Assembly (NCBI GenBank): GCA_948739805.1
Contig: CAPYID010000002.1
Span: 48,295-112,294, forward strand
Direction: 5' to 3'
DNA: 64,000 nt
Source of the DNA: an uncultured Clostridia bacterium
GTDB taxonomy: Bacteria > Bacillota > Clostridia > TANB77 > CAG-508
This document shows, one piece after another, positions 1,617 through 15,974 of this stretch. The translations under genes were made by a program, and so were the position numbers. Position 1 is the stretch's first letter; the number at the start of each line of letters is the position of its first letter. The notes beneath the pieces were generated by a model, which did not search any database, was not told the DNA's origin, and worked only from the letters and a program-made list of their open reading frames with translations.

Positions 1617-3512
1617 ATGAACAAATATTTTAATGATGCAATTATAGGAAATAATAAAATTAGAGCAGGTTTAACAAAAAAAGGAGAACTAATAAGGCTA
1701 TTTTATCCAAATATAGATTTTAAGCAATTCATAGAAGAATTCAAAGTAGGGGTAAAAGTGAATGATTCAGGACTAATTCATCTAGAACAAGATATAAACA
1801 ATGTATATGATCAATACTATTCAGAAGGTACAAATGTATTAAACACAGAAGTGGAAAACACATATTTTAAATTAGGAATAATCCAAACAGATTGTGCTCC
1901 AATAGGAGAAGACAATTTACTAATAAGAAAATATAAATTAATAAACCAAAATACAATTCCATTAGAGGTTAAATTAATAGTAAAATCTAAACTATTAACA
2001 AATGAAAATAATGATGTTGCATCAAGAATAATAGATAATGGTTTAATACAATATACACATGATTATAATTTTTCTATATTTTCAAATAAAAATATAATGT
2101 CACATAAATTACATGGAATAGACGATGTAATAGAAAGTGGAGTTCTAAACGATAAAGATTATATAGGAATGACAAACAATTCAGGAATTATATATGATGT
2201 ACAGACAATACAGCCAGGTAGTGAAATCGAAATTCCATTATACATATATATTACTGATAATAGAGAAAAATTTAGATTATCGGACATAGAAAAAGAAATA
2301 GACAATATTGTAAAAAAGGATTACAAGGAAGAGATATATAAAACAAAAAAATATTGGAGAAGATACTTAAAAAGTCACTCTAATATAGAATTTGAAAATA
2401 GTAGTTATGAGCAAATGTTAAAGAAAATATATGATAGAACAATATTATTGTATCCATTATTAGGAAACTCTGAAACAGGTGGTATAGCAGCAGCAATGGA
2501 GGCAGATGAAGGCAAAACAGCATGTGGAAGATATGCGTATTCATGGCCAAGAGATGCAGTATTTATAACAAATGCCTTAGACTTATTAAATATGGCAAAA
2601 GAAACAGAAAAATTCTATAAAAATTTCTGTAGAAACACACAAAGTAAAAATGGTATGTGGGAGCAGAGATTTTATACAGATGGAAGACTAGCTCCAGCAT
2701 GGGGATATCAAATAGACGAAACCTCAAGTGTAATATTTGGAGTATATAGTCATTATTTAAAGACAAAAGACTTTAGATTTTTAAAAGATAATTTTAAAAT
2801 GTTAGAAAAAGCAGTAAAATATCTAGAAAAATATATAGATAAAATTTTAAAAGGTGAAAGTCCTGAAAAAATAAGCTATGATTTATGGGAAATGCATGAA
2901 GGGGTTAGTTTATATTCGCTATCTAGTATTTTTGCAAGTTTTGAAGCCATGATAAAAATAAATGAGCTAATACTTCCAGAATTTGTAAACAATAGATTAA
3001 AGCAGAATGAGATAAAAGGGCAAATTCAAACATTACAGGACAGATTAGGAAAACTGAAAGAATTTATAATAAATAATTTTTATGATGAGCAAAATAACTT
3101 TTATAGAAGAAACTTAGAAGATGAAAAAATAGACATAAGTGTGTTAGGTGCAATTGTACCATTTAATGTATTTTCTGCAAAAGAAAAAAAGGTGCAAAAT
3201 ACAATAGAGAGAATAAATATGACATTAAGAACATATACAGGAGGATATCTAAGATTTGAAAATGACCATTATACAGGAGATAGACCATGGGTAATAGCAA
3301 CACTATGGATGGCATTATATTACATAGAAATAGGAAATATAAAAGAAGCAAGAGAATGTTTTGACTATGTTGTAAAGACACAAAATCCTCATGGCTTTTT
3401 AGCAGAACAAGTAGATAATCAAAAAATGGAACCAGCCTGGATAATAGGCTTAGGTTGGTCACATGCAATGTTTATATTGGTATTAAACAAACTGAAACAA
3501 CTAGAAAAATAA
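1617..3512 (+). CDS. glycoside hydrolase family 15 (glucoamylase/glucodextranase-like) protein
   Basis: 631-aa ORF with YSWPRDA motif and GGIAAAMEADEGK segment typical of the GH15 (alpha/alpha)6 catalytic domain. RBS AAGGAG upstream. Confidence 0.65.
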   Translation: MNKYFNDAIIGNNKIRAGLTKKGELIRLFYPNIDFKQFIEEFKVGVKVNDSGLIHLEQDINNVYDQYYSEGTNVLNTEVENTYFKLGIIQTDCAPIGEDNLLIRKYKLINQNTIPLEVKLIVKSKLLTNENNDVASRIIDNGLIQYTHDYNFSIFSNKNIMSHKLHGIDDVIESGVLNDKDYIGMTNNSGIIYDVQTIQPGSEIEIPLYIYITDNREKFRLSDIEKEIDNIVKKDYKEEIYKTKKYWRRYLKSHSNIEFENSSYEQMLKKIYDRTILLYPLLGNSETGGIAAAMEADEGKTACGRYAYSWPRDAVFITNALDLLNMAKETEKFYKNFCRNTQSKNGMWEQRFYTDGRLAPAWGYQIDETSSVIFGVYSHYLKTKDFRFLKDNFKMLEKAVKYLEKYIDKILKGESPEKISYDLWEMHEGVSLYSLSSIFASFEAMIKINELILPEFVNNRLKQNEIKGQIQTLQDRLGKLKEFIINNFYDEQNNFYRRNLEDEKIDISVLGAIVPFNVFSAKEKKVQNTIERINMTLRTYTGGYLRFENDHYTGDRPWVIATLWMALYYIEIGNIKEARECFDYVVKTQNPHGFLAEQVDNQKMEPAWIIGLGWSHAMFILVLNKLKQLEK

Positions 3513-7189: not shown

Positions 7190-9964
7190 ATGGGAATTTT
7201 TAACAAAATTTTTAAATCATATTCAGAAAGAGAAGTACAAAGGGTAATGCCACTTGTGGAAAAAATAAATAGTTTAGAGGAGGAAATTTCAAAACTATCA
7301 GATATAGAATTATCAAATAAAACCAAAGAATTTAAAGATAGGTTACAAAATGGAGAAACCCTAGATGATATTTTAACAGAGGCATTTGCAGTAATGAGAG
7401 AAGCATCAAAAAGAGTTTTAGGAATGAGACATTTTGATGTTCAATTAATTGGTGGAATTATTTTGCACCAAGGAAGAATTGCAGAGATGAAAACAGGAGA
7501 AGGAAAAACTTTAGTTGCAACACTTCCAGCATATTTAAATGCGTTATCAGGAAATGGAGTTCATGTAGTTACAGTAAACGATTATCTAGCCACACGTGAT
7601 AGTGAATGGATGGGAAAAGTTTACAAATTTTTAGGTCTAACAGTAGGACTAGTTATAAGTGGAATGAAGCCAGAAGAAAAACAAAAGGCATATTCAGCAG
7701 ACATTACATATGGAACAAATAATGAATTTGGATTTGATTATTTAAGAGATAATATGGTTATATATAAAAACCAAGCAGTTCAAAGAGGATTAAACTTTGC
7801 AATTGTAGACGAGATAGATAGTATATTAATAGATGAGGCACGTACACCATTAATTATTTCAGGAAAAGCAGCAGCTTCATCAGAAATGTATACAAAAGCA
7901 GACGATTTTGTAAAAAAACTTACACCAAAAATAATTGTAGAAGAAGATGTTAAAGACATTGATCAAGCAGAAGACAATGAAAAATACGACTATATAGTAG
8001 ATTTAAAGGCAAAATCTGCATCTCTTACAGCAAAGGGAATTGACAAAGCAGAAAAAACATTTAACTTAGAGAATTTAGATGACTTAGATAACTCAGATTT
8101 AGTTCATCACATAAACCAAGCATTACGAGCACATGGTATAATGAAAAAAGATATAGATTATATAGTAAAAGGTGGAGAAGTATTAATTGTAGACGAATTT
8201 ACAGGACGTATAATGTATGGTAGACGTTATAATAATGGTTTACATCAAGCAATAGAAGCAAAAGAAAGAGTAAGAATAGCAGATGAATCAAAAACTCTAG
8301 CAACAATAACATTCCAAAATTACTTTAGAATGTATTCAAAACTTTCAGGAATGACAGGTACTGCGATGACAGAAGAAGCAGAATTTCAAGAAATATACAA
8401 ATTAGATGTTATAACAATACCTACAAATAAACCAATGATAAGAGAAGACTCAAATGATGTAATATACAAAAATGAGAAAGCGAAATTTAATGCAATAGTA
8501 GAAGAAATTAAGAAAAGTCATGAAAAAGGTCAACCAGTATTAGTAGGAACAATATCAATTGAAAACTCTGAAAAGATAAGTAGTATATTAAAAAAAGAAG
8601 GAATACCACACCAAGTATTAAATGCAAAATTCCATGAAAGAGAAGCTGCTATTATAGCACAAGCAGGTAAATATGGTGCAGTAACAATATCTACAAACAT
8701 GGCAGGACGTGGTACAGACATTATACTAGGTGGAAACTCAGAATACTTAGCAAGACAAGAGATGAAAAAAAAGGCATATTCAGACGAACTAATAGAGCAG
8801 GCAAATGCATATAATGAAACAGATGACCAAGAAGTATTAGAAGCAAGAAATATATTTAGAGATTTAGAGAAGAAATTTGACGAAGAAATAAAAGAAGAGA
8901 AGGAAAAAGTAATAAAAGCTGGTGGACTAAAAATCATAGGAACAGAAAGGCACGAATCAAGAAGAATTGATAATCAGTTAAGAGGACGTAGTGGAAGACA
9001 AGGAGATGTCGGAGAATCAAAATTCTTCATAGGACTTGATGATAATTTAATGAAAATATTTGGTGGAGATGTAATAACAAATATATATGATAAAATAGGC
9101 GCAGATGAAGACATGCCTATAGAAGCAAAAATGTTATCAAGTGCAGTAGAAAATGCACAAAAAAGAGTTGAAGGAAGAAACTTTAGTATACGTAAGAATG
9201 TATTACAATATGATGATGTTATGAACACACAAAGAGAAATAATATATGGACAAAGAAGAGATGTATTAGACGGTAAAAATTTAAAAGAAAGTATATTAAA
9301 AATGATTGAGCCAGTAGCAACAGAAGTAGTTTCAAGTTTCTTTGGGACAGAAGAAAATGAAAATATAAATAAAGAATCATTAGCACAAGAAATAAAAAAC
9401 AATTTTGGGATTAGTGATATAGAAGCATTAAAAGAAGAAAAACTAAATCAAGTAGATATAATAAATGAGGTAGTAGAAAAATCAAAACAGAAATATGAAG
9501 AAAAAGAGCAAGAACTAGGCGAACAAGAAATAAGAGAACTAGAAAGAGTAGTAATGTTAAAAGTAGTAGACCAAAAGTGGATGGATCATATAGATGCAAT
9601 GGATGACTTAAAAGAAGGAATTGGTTTACGTGCTTATGGACAAAAAGATCCAGTAGCACAATATAGAATAGAAGGATTTGACATGTTTGACGCAATGGTA
9701 GCAGAAATACAAAAAGATGTAGTAAAAATCCTATTAAACATTCAAAAAGCAGGAGAACTAAAAAGAGAACAAACAGCAAAGATAACATCTGTTGCTCAAG
9801 CAACATTAGATAGTATAAATGTAGTAACAGAAAATAAGGAACAAGTTCCACAAACATCAGATGTGAAAAGAACACCTGTAGTAAATCAAGGACCAAAAGT
9901 AGGAAGAAATGACCCTTGTCCTTGTGGAAGTGGGAAGAAGTATAAAAACTGCTGTGGAAAATAG
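7190..9964 (+). CDS. secA: preprotein translocase subunit SecA
   Basis: Full-length SecA with DEAD-motor motifs ([27 protein letters not shown]) and C-terminal zinc-finger tail [18 protein letters not shown] at 7190 preferred over the upstream GTG at 7172 because of RBS spacing. Confidence 0.95.
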
Positions 9965-10070: not shown

Positions 10071-10499
10071 ATGGTATATAATGATAAATATAAATTTGTA
10101 GCAATTATTAATGAAAAAATAGAAATAGGAAAGGCATTAAATGCAATTGCACATATGGGATTAGGATTAGTAAATATAGCAGATGAAGAAACAAAAGAAA
10201 ATATGTCTTTTGTTGATTTCCCAGATAAAGACGAAGAGTTACATAAGAGTATATCTGGATTATCTTTAATCGTTTTGGGCGGAAAAAATAACGAAATAAA
10301 AAAGGCTAGAAGGCAATTTAAAGAAGAAGGAATATTATTTGTGGACTTTATAGAAACAATGACAGGAGATACATATGCGGAGCAGTTGGTAAAAACAAAA
10401 GAGATAAATACAGAAGAACACAATTATTTTGGATTACTAGCATTTGGAGAAATAGAAAAAATAAATCCTATTACAAAAAGATTGTCATTATATAAATAA
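10071..10499 (+). CDS. DUF2000-family protein (predicted PTH2-like fold)
   Basis: 142 aa. KFVAIINEKIEIGKALNAIAHMGLGL matches the DUF2000 N-terminal pattern as I recall it. GGGAGG RBS 9 nt upstream. Confidence 0.5.
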   Translation: MVYNDKYKFVAIINEKIEIGKALNAIAHMGLGLVNIADEETKENMSFVDFPDKDEELHKSISGLSLIVLGGKNNEIKKARRQFKEEGILFVDFIETMTGDTYAEQLVKTKEINTEEHNYFGLLAFGEIEKINPITKRLSLYK

Positions 10500-10567
10500 G
10501 TTTAAATTATTAAAGTCTTCTATTGGGAACAAAAATGGCAAACTTGGGAAAATAAATTCAAAAAATA

Positions 10568-10598
10568 TTGACAAATGGTATAAAAACGGGTTATAATG
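10568..10598 (+). promoter_or_regulatory. promoter of the toxI-like/toxN unit (TTGACA ... TATAAT)
   Basis: TTGACA at 10568-10573 and TATAAT at 10593-10598 (spacer 18-19 nt). Confidence 0.45.
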
Positions 10599-10602
10599 AA
10601 TA

Positions 10603-10682
10603 TAATAGAAATAGATATTTAATATCTATTTACAGTTAAAAATCAGGTGAACCCTACCAATAAGTGGGAGCTGTAAAATCAA
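10603..10682 (+). ncRNA. toxI: putative type III antitoxin RNA (ToxI-like): 5' hairpin plus a single 36-nt ToxI-like repeat unit (10645-10680)
   Basis: Unit AGGTGAACCCTACCAATAAGTGGGAGCTGTAAAATC is bounded by AAAAT on both sides 36-37 nt apart. It aligns block-by-block with the ToxI repeat as I recall it (AGGTGA..CTACC..AAGTG..AGCT..AAAT(T)C). Palindrome AAATAGATATTTAATATCTATTT at 10609-10631. It sits between a promoter and a terminator immediately upstream of a ToxN/AbiQ-family ORF. Confidence 0.45.
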
Positions 10683-10719
10683 AAGGTAGAGATCTAGGTC
10701 TTTACCTTTTATATTTTTT
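10683..10719 (+). terminator. intrinsic terminator/attenuator between antitoxin RNA and toxN (typical type III TA architecture)
   Basis: AAAGGTAGAGATC/GGTCTTTACCTTT imperfect hairpin followed by TATATTTTTT. Confidence 0.5.
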
Positions 10720-10730
10720 AGGAGGGAAAA

Positions 10731-11258
10731 ATGAAACTATATTCAGTAACAGATAAATATATAGATTATTTAAGACAATTTGATTATAAAGTTTATGACA
10801 ATAAAGAAGATAGAAGAAAAGTAATGAGAAAATATTTGGGTATAGTTTTAACAATAAATGAAATGAACTATTATATACCAATGTCATCTCCTAAAAAGAG
10901 TGATTATAAAGATAATGAAATAAGAAAATCTATTGTTCCTATTGTAAGAATTGTATCAAATGAGGAAGTCGATAATGTACCAGTTTTAAAAGGAACATTA
11001 AGAATTAGTAATATGATACCTGTTCCAGATAGTGAATTAATATTATATGAGCCTAAATATGAAAGAAACAAAAATTATAAGATATTAGTTGAAAAGGAAC
11101 TTGAATTTATTGGGAAAAATGAAGAAATGATAAAGAAGTATGCAAGTATTATATATAATCAAAAAATTAATAATTATGATGTATCTTATATAAATAATGT
11201 TGTAGATTTTAAGTTATTAGAACAAAAATGTAAGGAATATAAAAGCGACAATAATTGA
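10731..11258 (+). CDS. toxN: type III toxin-antitoxin system ToxN/AbiQ-family endoribonuclease toxin
   Basis: 175 aa. MKLYSVTDKYIDYLRQFDYKV...KYLGIVLTINEMNYYIPMSSPKK closely parallels the AbiQ N-terminus as I recall it (MKFYTISSKYIEYLKEFDDKV...IGIVLEIQGHKYLAPLTSPKK). Size matches AbiQ/ToxN. RBS AGGAGGG. Confidence 0.8.
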   Translation: MKLYSVTDKYIDYLRQFDYKVYDNKEDRRKVMRKYLGIVLTINEMNYYIPMSSPKKSDYKDNEIRKSIVPIVRIVSNEEVDNVPVLKGTLRISNMIPVPDSELILYEPKYERNKNYKILVEKELEFIGKNEEMIKKYASIIYNQKINNYDVSYINNVVDFKLLEQKCKEYKSDNN

Positions 11259-11312
11259 AAAATTTAATATGGGCATTGTATTTTTTATAAGATTATTATA
11301 TACTATTTTCAT

Positions 11313-11333
11313 AAATCGAATGTAAACATTGTT
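11313..11333 (+). repeat. 21-bp direct repeat AAATCGAATGTAAACATTGTT, copy 1 (second copy at 18433-18453)
   Basis: Exact 21/21 identity between the two loci, which flank the integrase-containing segment. Confidence 0.7.
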
Positions 11334-11470
11334 TGCATTTTGTTTGCAAAAAATAAGAAAACATATACAAAAATAATACTAATAATACCAAAAATATAAA
11401 TGGCTATAATCCGTGATATTATTAGTATACATAGTATTCTATAGTATTGATAATACAGAAATAAAGTCTT

Positions 11471-11520
11471 CATGTGGAAGTGGAAAGAAGTATAAGAATT
11501 GTTGCGGAAGAAATGAGTAA
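11471..11520 (+). mobile_element. diverged duplicate of the secA 3' end (encodes ...[15 protein letters not shown]): att-site remnant of a secA-3'-targeting integrative element
   Basis: TGTGGAAGTGGAAAGAAGTATAAGAATTGTTGCGGAA versus the secA end TGTGGAAGTGGGAAGAAGTATAAAAACTGCTGTGGAA (9924-9960). Integrase gene lies 230 bp downstream. Confidence 0.6.
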
Positions 11521-11746: not shown

Positions 11747-13015
11747 ATGGTTAGTGTCAGTAAAAGAGGAAAAGTGTATCAATATCAATTTGATATTGCA
11801 CCTATTAACGGCAAAAGAAAGAGAGTTACAAAATCTGGATTCAAAACAAAAGCAGAAGCAGAAAAGGCAGGAATAGAGGCATACAATGAATATAACAATA
11901 CAGGACATTCTTTTATTCCATCACAAATATCTTATAGTGATTATTTAGATTATTGGATGAAAGAACATTGCGAGATAAATTTGAAATATCACACAATAGA
12001 GGCATACAAAAATATTGTAAAAAATCATATAAAACCTAAATTAGGATTTTATAGATTATCACAAATAACAACAGCGACACTTCAAGAATTTATCAATAAC
12101 ATATATGTAGAAAAGAGCTTTTCGAAAAATTTTTTAAGGAATATTTTAAAGGTTTTGAAAACGTCATTTACCTATGCAACAGATGTAGTAGGATTTGTGA
12201 AGGAAAATCCATCATTAAAGGTTAGACTTCCTAAATATGATATTCAAGCTGAAGATCCAGTTCATATTTTTACAAAAGAAGAAGTCAAAATGATTTTAAA
12301 TAGATTTCAAAATAATCATGCAATTTATTATGCTTTTTTAACTGCGTACTATACTGGACTTCGAGTTTCAGAAGTGTTTGGACTAACTTGGAAGGACATT
12401 GATTTGGAAAACAAAAGATTAACAGTAAATAAAAATGTCTTGAAGAAAAATCAAAAAGGAGGAACAAAAAATAGAAATATTAGTGGAAATGCCACAACAG
12501 TTTGGTATTTTGGAACTTGCAAAACAACAAGTAGTTATAGAACTATTGATATTGGAGATACATTAGTAAATGCTTTAAAAGAATACAAAAAAGAGCAAGA
12601 AAAATATAAAGAAGAATATGGTGATTCATACATGAAGCATTATGCAAAAGAAGTAGAAAATCCATATACTAAAAAGAAGGAAATAAAAATAGTAAATGCT
12701 TATGCTGAAATTGATGTTACATTGCCAGAAGTCAATTTAGTTTTCTTAAAAAATAATGGAGTATTTGAAGGAACAGATACTTGCAAATATCCATTCAAAG
12801 TAATTCATTATGAATTAGGAATTCCATGCAGATTTCATGATTTTAGAGATACACATGCAACAAGATTAATTGAAGCAGGAGCAGATATAAAAGCAGTATC
12901 AAAGAGATTAGGACATAGTACAATAAAAACAACTTATGAAATATATGTAAGAGTAACAACAAAAATGGAAACAGATATAGTACAAAAATTTGAGCAATTT
13001 ACCTTAAATTTATAA
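11747..13015 (+). CDS. int: site-specific tyrosine recombinase/integrase (phage/ICE type), copy 1
   Basis: 422 aa. N-terminal KSGFKTKAEAEKA DNA-binding-type segment. C-terminal catalytic region with HDFRDTHATRL, GHSTIKTT and the YEIYV tyrosine region. Confidence 0.85.
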   Translation: MVSVSKRGKVYQYQFDIAPINGKRKRVTKSGFKTKAEAEKAGIEAYNEYNNTGHSFIPSQISYSDYLDYWMKEHCEINLKYHTIEAYKNIVKNHIKPKLGFYRLSQITTATLQEFINNIYVEKSFSKNFLRNILKVLKTSFTYATDVVGFVKENPSLKVRLPKYDIQAEDPVHIFTKEEVKMILNRFQNNHAIYYAFLTAYYTGLRVSEVFGLTWKDIDLENKRLTVNKNVLKKNQKGGTKNRNISGNATTVWYFGTCKTTSSYRTIDIGDTLVNALKEYKKEQEKYKEEYGDSYMKHYAKEVENPYTKKKEIKIVNAYAEIDVTLPEVNLVFLKNNGVFEGTDTCKYPFKVIHYELGIPCRFHDFRDTHATRLIEAGADIKAVSKRLGHSTIKTTYEIYVRVTTKMETDIVQKFEQFTLNL

Positions 13016-14702: not shown

Positions 14703-15974
14703 ATGGGTAATGTTACAATTCAAAAAAGAGGCAAATATTATCAATATAAATTTGAAGTAGCTAAGGTAGAGGGCAAAAGAAAATTCATAAATAAATCTGG
14801 GTTTAAAACAAAAGATGAAGCAATTAAAGCAGGAAATATTGCTTATACAGAATATTTAAACACTGGTTTGAGTTTTAAAGAAAAGGCAATTTCATTTAGT
14901 GATTATTTAGATTACTGGTATGAAAATTATTGTGAAATAAACTTAAAATATAATACAAGAAGAACTTATAAAACAATAATTGATAAATATTTAAAACCAG
15001 AACTAGGCAAGTATAGATTAAGTTCTTTAACAAGTGTAAAGCTAAATTCATATATCGTTGATTTATGCAACAAATATAACTATAAAAAATCATATTATAG
15101 AAATATATTAAAAGTTTTGAAAAACTGTTTTAGAGTATCAACAGATGTATATGGATTTATAAGGTATAATCCAACATTAACTTTAAAATTACCTAAAATA
15201 GAAGATGAGAAGGCTTTTAAGAAACATTTATATAATAAAAATGAAATTGATATAATTTTAGATAGATTTAAAGATGATGATACTTTTACTTGTGAATTTA
15301 TTACAAGTTGTTTTACTGGAATGAGAACAGGGGAAGTATGTGCATTAACTTGGGATGATATAGATTTCGAAAATAGAGTTATAAATGTTAGGCATACAGT
15401 ATATGACAAGCCAAAAGATAATAAAGGAAGATGGTATATAGGAACTACTAAAACTAAAAAATGGACAAGACAAATTAATATGTGTGAAACTGTATATAAT
15501 GCTTTAATGAATTATAAAAAGAAACAACAATATATGAAAAAAATATATGGTAAAGAATATTTAACTTATCATTTTGAAGATGTACTCAATAAATATGGAA
15601 AAGTGGTAGAACAACGAATTGTGCAGAATGAAAGTAATATCCTTCAAATAAACAAAGCAGATATGGTATTTACAAGACTTAATGGCAAATATGTTGGCAG
15701 AAATATTTTAAATTATCCATTTAAGATAATTCATAAAGAACTTGGTATTGAAAATTGTAGATTTTACGATTTAAGAGGAAGTTATGCAACTATTAATTTA
15801 AGAAATGGTATAGAAATCAGAGCTGTTGCAGATATTTTAGGACACAAATATATAGAAACTACTGAAAACTTTTATATATCTAGTACTGATGAAGATCAGA
15901 AAGATGTAAGTAATGTATTTGACAATTTAATGAGTTCAAAAACAATTGAAGATATTATAAAATATGAGATATGA
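14703..15974 (+). CDS. int: site-specific tyrosine recombinase/integrase, copy 2 (paralog of 11747-13015)
   Basis: 423 aa, collinear with int1 (RGKYYQYKFEVAKVEGKRKFINKSGFKTKDEA..., HKELGIENCRFYDLRGSYAT, GHKYIETT). Confidence 0.85.
   Translation: MGNVTIQKRGKYYQYKFEVAKVEGKRKFINKSGFKTKDEAIKAGNIAYTEYLNTGLSFKEKAISFSDYLDYWYENYCEINLKYNTRRTYKTIIDKYLKPELGKYRLSSLTSVKLNSYIVDLCNKYNYKKSYYRNILKVLKNCFRVSTDVYGFIRYNPTLTLKLPKIEDEKAFKKHLYNKNEIDIILDRFKDDDTFTCEFITSCFTGMRTGEVCALTWDDIDFENRVINVRHTVYDKPKDNKGRWYIGTTKTKKWTRQINMCETVYNALMNYKKKQQYMKKIYGKEYLTYHFEDVLNKYGKVVEQRIVQNESNILQINKADMVFTRLNGKYVGRNILNYPFKIIHKELGIENCRFYDLRGSYATINLRNGIEIRAVADILGHKYIETTENFYISSTDEDQKDVSNVFDNLMSSKTIEDIIKYEI

Follow-up and report, generated by a model that had tools for sequence, protein, structure and literature searches.

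A conserved ToxIN-like cassette with a single-unit RNA antitoxin in uncultured gut Clostridia

Comparison with described type III systems

Type III toxin-antitoxin systems of the ToxIN family are defined by tandem repeats in the RNA antitoxin. In the archetypal locus of the gammaproteobacterial plasmid pECA1039 (Pectobacterium atrosepticum; PDB 2XD0/2XDB/2XDD), a promoter is followed by 5.6 tandem ToxI units, a terminator and toxN. The Firmicutes abortive-infection system AbiQ/antiQ (Lactococcus lactis pSRQ900; 4GLK) similarly has a terminator ahead of the toxin, and its antitoxin consists of 2.8–2.9 repeats of 35 nt. A census published in 2012 reported a range of 1.9–5.6 copies for toxIN loci and left homologues devoid of repeats 'not examined any further' (Blower et al., PMC3401426); repeats were still described as a key feature in a 2016 review and a 2025 preprint (bioRxiv 10.1101/2025.04.15.648962). 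As tandem repeats were required, single-unit loci have been excluded from the published censuses. Here, a ToxIN-like cassette of ~0.7 kb was analysed in a 64-kb stretch of DNA (i.e. the window) from contig CAPYID010000002.1 of an uncultured Clostridia bacterium. The order of elements is that of pECA1039, but one antitoxin unit is present instead of 5.6 and the unit is preceded by a 5' hairpin that is absent from the plasmid. The anatomy of this locus, its homology to ToxI, its conservation and its derived state establish a real and selected single-unit variant of ToxIN, which is carried in chromosomal islets of uncultured gut Clostridia as opposed to a plasmid.

An initial annotation, made from the sequence alone, had proposed a toxN/abiQ gene preceded by a minimal antitoxin, and a reading of 10200–11500 found every element that it listed in the place assigned. 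The AbiQ/ToxN homologue named there proved to be a full-length match to ToxN_toxin (PF13958; E 3.9e-38; profile positions 1–159 of 159), with AbiQ as the best PADLOC model (E 1.1e-43). Sequence matches were obtained to all four ToxN/AbiQ proteins with solved structures (i.e. 4GLK, 2XD0, 7D8O and 4ATO), of which AbiQ was the best (E 1.5e-20); the match to the pECA1039 toxin had an E of 4.7e-16. Catalysis by ToxN depends on Lys33, Thr52, Ser53 and Lys55, and K33R is a natural substitution (PMC8860590). The aligned residues of the window toxin are R33, S52, S53 and K55, all of them invariant among 20 aligned proteins of the single-unit clade described below. Within this clade, the ratio of non-synonymous to synonymous divergence (dN/dS) of toxN had a median of 0.13 (338 pairs), with dS relative to the window reaching ~1.5. 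This toxin gene is under purifying selection.

The antitoxin was examined using a covariance model (R1) constructed from 21 tandem units of distant ToxN loci only (i.e. L025, L026, L027, L031, L033, L034, L044 and L045). The toxins of these loci are 40–68% identical to the window toxin, and no sequence of the single-unit clade was included. With filters off and both strands of the window searched (128 kb), R1 produced one significant match, at 10641–10680 on the forward strand (30.9 bits, E 1.9e-4), the runner-up being noise (12.6 bits, E 1.5). At 25.7 bits, the ToxI repeats of the archetype pECA1039 were scored below the window unit, and recognition of this antitoxin indicates that R1 is valid as a model of the ToxI family. 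The one recognisable unit of the initial annotation was thereby recovered, with zero degenerate extra units. The ToxI repeat given in that annotation was 100% identical to the pECA1039 sequence, and the block-wise likeness drawn from it held up in a pairwise alignment with pECA1039 ToxI (26/37 aligned columns identical, z = 6.4), AGGUGA, CUACC, UAAGUG and AGCU being common to both together with an AAAU-type motif at the unit borders. R1 detected no unit in antiQ at E ≤ 1; pairwise alignment of antiQ with the window unit gave 24/37 identical columns (z = 4.5). The delimiting motifs are also as annotated, with copies of AAATC at 10640–10644 and 10676–10680 spaced by exactly 36 nt.

No further unit was detected upstream. 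With filters off, R1 had no match at E ≤ 10 in the hairpin segment (10598–10640), and a global alignment of the 5' leader to the unit was chance-like (z = 1.6), the leader and the unit end having in common just a 7-nt cleavage-type motif (U/AAAAUC). A second, degenerate unit in the leader was rejected on these two results. They also separate the two options under which the locus had been put forward as an unusual variant of the family: the single R1 match favours an antitoxin of one unit, and the lack of ToxI resemblance in the hairpin goes against one built from heterologous units. Using Tandem Repeats Finder (TRF) with a minimum score of 30, repeats of ~36-nt period were not detected at the locus. 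The cassette consequently lies outside the tandem-repeat criterion for type III loci (Blower et al. 2012, PMC3401426), with no array by TRF and one unit by R1. It has a ToxI-homologous unit that appears able to form both pseudoknot stems, a terminator between antitoxin and toxin, and a single upstream promoter. An Rfam scan of 10400–11400 yielded just sub-threshold noise (i.e. Termite-leu on the terminator and a ciliate telomerase RNA). This result is uninformative, as Rfam release 15 also has no family for the archetypal ToxI array (L048, the pECA1039 locus, 860–1070). Annotation that relies on Rfam is in effect blind to antitoxins of the ToxI type.

Distribution and conservation of the single-unit architecture

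Related loci were obtained from a scan of one genome per species (36 loci), a metagenome scan (11 loci) and divergent close homologues (six contigs). Among loci with the leader inside the contig, the layout of promoter, GAATATAATA, hairpin, AAAUC, one unit, terminator and toxN was present in every locus whose toxin was at least 68% identical to that of the window (28 species-representative genomes, 9 metagenome contigs and 5 Logan contigs). The single-unit architecture was observed in >40 independently assembled loci, with toxins 68–99% identical to the window toxin, and exactly one R1 match was obtained per locus for the 36 clade loci scanned, all with the unit region in the contig. Logan contigs, assembled with k=31, passed unbroken through the leader. 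The carriers are uncultured Clostridia from the gut of mice, humans, rabbits and chickens. A search of a viral contig collection revealed no relatives, and a phage origin was discarded on this basis.

Higher copy numbers were found outside this clade, with four units in L033, three in L025, L031 and L045, two in L027 and three divergent units in L026/L044. In a neighbour-joining tree with pECA1039 as the outgroup, the single-unit loci formed one clade nested among these 2–4-unit loci, indicating that one unit is the derived state. The single-unit state is the conserved architecture of a whole clade, neither a one-off nor a product of decay. Thirteen ToxN loci, sampled broadly from sequenced plasmids, were examined with identical TRF settings, and 12 of them had 2.0–5.6 repeats.

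The multi-unit loci of Clostridia and Negativicutes (i.e. L045, L033, L025/L031, L027 and L026/L044) are relatives of the cassette, with toxins 40–68% identical to that of the window and units of the same type (31/38 columns identical between unit 2 of L045 and the window unit). These loci also have the promoter, a leader motif (AAATATAG..AATC) and a terminator starting right after AAAUC, their leader reading TATAAT-AAATATAG(AA)AATC-unit. They differ in having 2–4 tandem units and in that none has the AAATAGATAT hairpin, which is confined to the single-unit clade and appears, by comparison of the sequences, to have been inserted into the short leader of the canonical relatives. Two Phascolarctobacterium-type loci (L026, 2800–2925; L044, 1300–1425) contain three mutually divergent ToxI-type units as non-identical repeats, and have a 5' hairpin of their own (GATAAG-GCAA-CTTATC) directly after the promoter. 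In BLASTN comparisons of the window with all loci, homology started at 10549–10562 and stopped at ~11240–11262, the toxN stop codon; these borders indicate that inheritance involves only the promoter, leader and toxN, and that no further partner is conserved.

Conservation was examined as mean pairwise identity over the clade loci used for dN/dS. Identity was 97% for the body of the unit, 99% for its tail and 96% for the upstream AAAATC (AAATC being invariant in 35 loci), while the hairpin had values of 98.9% for the 3' arm, 91% for the 5' arm and 66% for the loop. Values of ~91% and 51% were obtained for the GAATATAATAG segment and the spacer after the terminator, respectively. Near-invariance of the promoter, the unit, its two AAAUC sites and the terminator contrasts with the divergence of neutral positions, and the unit retains 97–99% identity even where dS is as high as ~1.5. 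With 97–99% conservation against 51–66% for loops and the post-terminator spacer, the RNA (i.e. the unit and the 3' arm of the hairpin) is under selection.

The proposed RNA structure was paired in 98.8% of cells in the clade alignment, as compared to 43–52% with the partners slid. In stem 2 of the pseudoknot, CCC:GGG is replaced by CUC:GAG in L011 and L029, and once more in L065. These variants are compensatory only if C11 pairs with G27, and this register was preferred to C12:G27, the nested fold of the unit with minimum free energy, which was dropped. In the wider family, compensatory changes were observed in 5/6 pairs of stem 2, and only wobble variation in stem 1 (GGU:ACC). The inter-gene terminator of the initial annotation was recovered in a terminator scan as 13 pairs followed by a T-run, of which shuffles would give 0.1 such sites; six of the 13 pairs exhibited compensatory double changes. 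It folds at -14.3 kcal/mol (z = -3.7), with the stem beginning immediately 3' of the unit. The promoter matches 12/12 consensus positions, is the sole such site in 10400–11500 and is kept in all clade loci. It is also the sole promoter of the cassette, serving both genes from upstream of the antitoxin, the gap from terminator to ribosome-binding site (RBS) being too short for another. With the terminator between antitoxin and toxin, toxN would be expressed only via read-through. A side observation concerns L020 (~2910–3000), in which ~50 nt of A-rich sequence has been inserted 3' of the terminator, ahead of the toxN RBS; this gap is ~10–15 nt in all other clade loci.

Table 1. Features of the single-unit cassette in window coordinates
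Feature	Position	Strand	Remarks
Promoter, sigma-70-type	10568–10597	+	TTGACA 10568–10573, 18-nt spacer, TATAAT 10592–10597
Initial transcribed segment	10598–10608	+	GAATATAATAG, 11 nt; start predicted near 10604
5' hairpin	10609–10631	+	23-nt palindrome; 10-bp stem AAATAGATAT / ATATCTATTT, TTA loop
Linker	10632–10644	+	ACAGTTAAAAATC, with upstream AAAUC motif
Single ToxI-like antitoxin unit	10645–10680	+	AGGTGAACCCTACCAATAAGTGGGAGCTGTAAAATC, 36 nt, DNA repeat frame
Predicted pseudoknot stem 1	10646–10649 with 10655–10658	+	GGUG with UACC
Predicted pseudoknot stem 2	10652–10654 with 10666–10668	+	CCC with GGG
Intrinsic terminator	10681–10719	+	13-bp stem 10681–10710 and U-tract, between antitoxin and toxin
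RBS for toxN	10720–10725	+	AGGAGG, read from sequence; kept in related loci
toxN, ToxN/AbiQ-family endoribonuclease toxin	10731–11258	+	175 aa; PF13958

Other described systems approach this arrangement in part. The pseudo-ToxI of phage PhiTE is a natural ToxI-like sequence with fewer than two copies (1.5 repeats), but is an anti-defence mimic with no toxin gene, whereas the single copy described here stands beside its own toxin; the 1.5 copies give the phage no protection, and escape mutants expand to 4.5–5.5 copies (PMC3475682). AbiF/RCd22 of Clostridioides difficile, another gut Firmicute, likewise has an RNA antitoxin upstream of an Abi toxin with a terminator between them, but the toxin is an unrelated Abi_2 protein and the RNA comprises two motifs and is unprocessed between them (bioRxiv 10.1101/2025.04.15.648962). 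No description of natural single-unit ToxIN loci was found in the searchable literature, the coverage of which is incomplete. The toxin and the RNA unit belong to known families, and the biochemistry is expected, as one repeat can suffice; the novelty lies in a conserved natural clade of single-unit loci and in the search bias that it exposes. The tandem-repeat definition of type III systems is too narrow, and genuine loci are lost from censuses that rely on repeat finders. The clade also provides a natural test of why other systems keep several repeats, candidate reasons being antitoxin dosage, recognition of repeat junctions by ToxN and tuning of abortive-infection sensitivity.

A further ToxN/AbiQ-family toxin without detectable repeats was noted on Enterococcus faecium plasmid NZ_CP027515.1 (L058, 51487–53121; WP_002317408.1, with ~31 hits on Enterococcus plasmids). 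No TRF repeat was detected in the 560 nt extending to just past the start codon, and R1 had no match in the 1.6-kb locus. This gene may represent a further lineage without repeats or encode a toxin that has another partner.

Proposed action of the cassette and alternative explanations

The cassette is probably a self-contained, ToxIN-like type III toxin-antitoxin/abortive-infection system in which the antitoxin gene has been reduced to one pseudoknot unit. The strong constitutive promoter would produce mostly an RNA of ~110 nt, comprising the 5' hairpin, AAAUC, the 36-nt unit, AAAUC and the terminator, and the few transcripts passing the terminator would supply the toxN message. ToxN cleaves GAA^AU, and its active site retains the resulting 2',3'-cyclic-phosphate end (PMC8860590); by this specificity, the upstream AAAUC is a predicted 5' cleavage site (AA^AU). 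Cleavage at the two AA^AU sites flanking the unit would release a 36-nt pseudoknot, predicted to span 10642–10677, that would remain on ToxN and block the active site as in ToxIN complexes. When transcription is halted (e.g. by phage infection), the short-lived RNA would not be replaced and ToxN would be freed. Copy number would not contribute to antitoxin excess, which would be set by the strength of the promoter, the efficiency of termination and the stability of the RNA; with one unit per transcript, the excess would hinge entirely on the latter two. When over-expressed, a single cloned ToxI repeat is able to neutralise ToxN (PMC3475682, PMC3401426), indicating that one unit is sufficient in principle.

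Several points weigh against this interpretation. Processing, neutralisation, stoichiometry and the role of the hairpin are matters that we infer. AbiQ constructs with 0.8 repeat were inviable while 1.8 sufficed (PMC5086642), such that one unit is not guaranteed to be enough at native expression. Seven clade loci have an inactivated toxN behind an intact leader, and some copies are therefore decaying. It is possible that a second ToxI array acts in trans from elsewhere in the genomes, although R1 found none in the window or in ~231 kb of flanks of L001–L047. Most loci derive from short-read assemblies. It is, however, unlikely that 36-nt repeats were reduced to precisely one copy in >40 assemblies from different assemblers, as relatives in the same collections keep 2–4 copies.

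The 5' hairpin is the other distinctive element of the leader. The palindrome was correctly annotated as a separate element. It folds at -6.9 kcal/mol (z = -3.1), begins ~5 nt from the predicted transcription start and was paired in 98.9% of cells in the clade alignment; both partners of one pair are lost in L065. As the palindrome occurs once in the window, a dispersed repeat was discarded. The linker varies in length, with 2 to ~16 nt between the stem and AAAUC, and L061 has only CAAATC. In Firmicutes, stem-loops near the 5' end protect RNAs from RNase J-type decay. The hairpin most likely stabilises or insulates the antitoxin precursor and may protect its 5' end; it may also place a structured element next to the 5' cleavage site. 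The leader sequence ACAGUU (10632–10637) is complementary to AGCUGU (10669–10674) in the unit, the two being paired in the centroid fold and in 94.5% of cells (35 loci). These sequences could form a helix that exists only in the precursor and encloses the unit. This helix exhibited no compensatory change and is absent in L018 and L061–L064, and was kept only as an idea.

A larger role for the hairpin segment was considered. In a composite antitoxin, the segment would be a second, heterologous ToxN-binding module, and the functional antitoxin would be hairpin plus pseudoknot with a possibly different stoichiometry; in another version, the hairpin would replace the absent adjacent repeat required by ToxN for the 5' cut. 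The 3' arm is as conserved as the unit, the segment measures ~37 nt up to the first AA^AU, counted from the predicted start (about the length of a unit), and ends in AAAAUC, ToxN in ToxIN touches the pseudoknot edges of two adjacent repeats (PMC8860590), and the ACAGUU:AGCUGU pairing could join segment and unit. The segment, however, has no similarity to ToxI, forms a plain hairpin rather than a pseudoknot, and lies at a variable distance from AAAUC, with ACAG missing in L018 and L061 and no covariation in the helix; the unrelated hairpins ahead of three units in L026 and L044 fit a generic 5'-end element. Taken together, these observations make a composite antitoxin unlikely. The broader proposal that tandem repetition is dispensable in a natural type III antitoxin, with the heterologous hairpin replacing the neighbouring repeat, also seems rather doubtful. 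If it were true, the hairpin would present the 5' AA^AU site, stabilise the precursor or stay in the complex, and the cassette would represent a minimal ToxIN that follows a processing logic of its own and may also differ in stoichiometry or in sensitivity to triggers.

Two further explanations are both highly improbable. A host or mobile-element repressor might bind 10609–10631, downstream of the -10, so that control at the DNA level makes a single unit adequate; such an operator would account for a perfect 10-bp inverted repeat overlapping the predicted transcription start and for conservation of its sequence beyond mere pairing. All of the substitutions were, however, one-armed A-to-G changes on the 5' arm (11 cells), which produce G.U pairs in RNA and break the symmetry of the DNA. 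The inter-arm spacer varies between 3 and 7 nt, and the cassette has no regulator gene and occurs in unrelated genomic contexts. Type III systems are not known to be autoregulated by DNA binding. The G.U-compatible changes, confined to one strand, and the variable loop indicate that the hairpin acts as RNA, which fits these data better than a DNA operator. The other explanation is that the array was collapsed by recombination or assembly error, leaving a non-functional remnant or a solitary toxin outside the control of this RNA. Collapse with loss of function does occur: L036 (2880–3100) is the remnant of an L033-type four-unit array in which one unit is left, the -35 is lost, the -10 is mutated and toxN is truncated after ~31 codons, indicating that recombination can reduce an array to a single unit. 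The seven broken toxN genes and the origin of most loci in metagenome-assembled genomes also point in this direction. An identical layout in >40 independent assemblies, including the unbroken Logan contigs, is contrary to decay, as are purifying selection on toxN, a near-invariant unit, AAAUC sites, promoter and terminator amid neutral divergence, and the monophyly of a clade that spans a synonymous divergence of ~1.5.

Genomic context and decaying copies

The last codons of secA (window 9923–9945) are duplicated 1.5 kb downstream (11473–11520), with 22/23 nt matching, and the duplicate brackets a DUF2000 gene and the toxIN cassette. Two tyrosine-integrase islets follow (integrases at 11747–13015 and 14703–15971), with a cargo of NUDIX, Ser hydrolase, DUF3800 and other genes. 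This arrangement resembles an integration hotspot located at the secA 3' end, toxIN being carried as cargo. A tRNA attachment site was rejected, as the window contains no tRNA and the attachment-like repeat is the secA 3' end. In other genomes, the cassette is immediately 3' of secA (L002, L005 and L028) or 3' of an integrase (L001 and L032). Being common in gut Clostridia in small integrase-associated islets, the cassette may be relevant to phage defence in the gut microbiome, and its compactness suits structural or synthetic work.

The seven loci with an inactivated toxN (i.e. L017, L023, L029, L030, L032, L035 and L046) have an intact promoter, hairpin, unit and terminator; in these loci, the toxin decays first and the antitoxin is retained. 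Several of the seven have internal deletions of ~70–85 codons (~residues 24–117) that remove the S52–K55 stretch. Genuine remnants are seen in L036 and L046 and in the toxN deletions of L029, L030 and L032, that of L030 being in frame.

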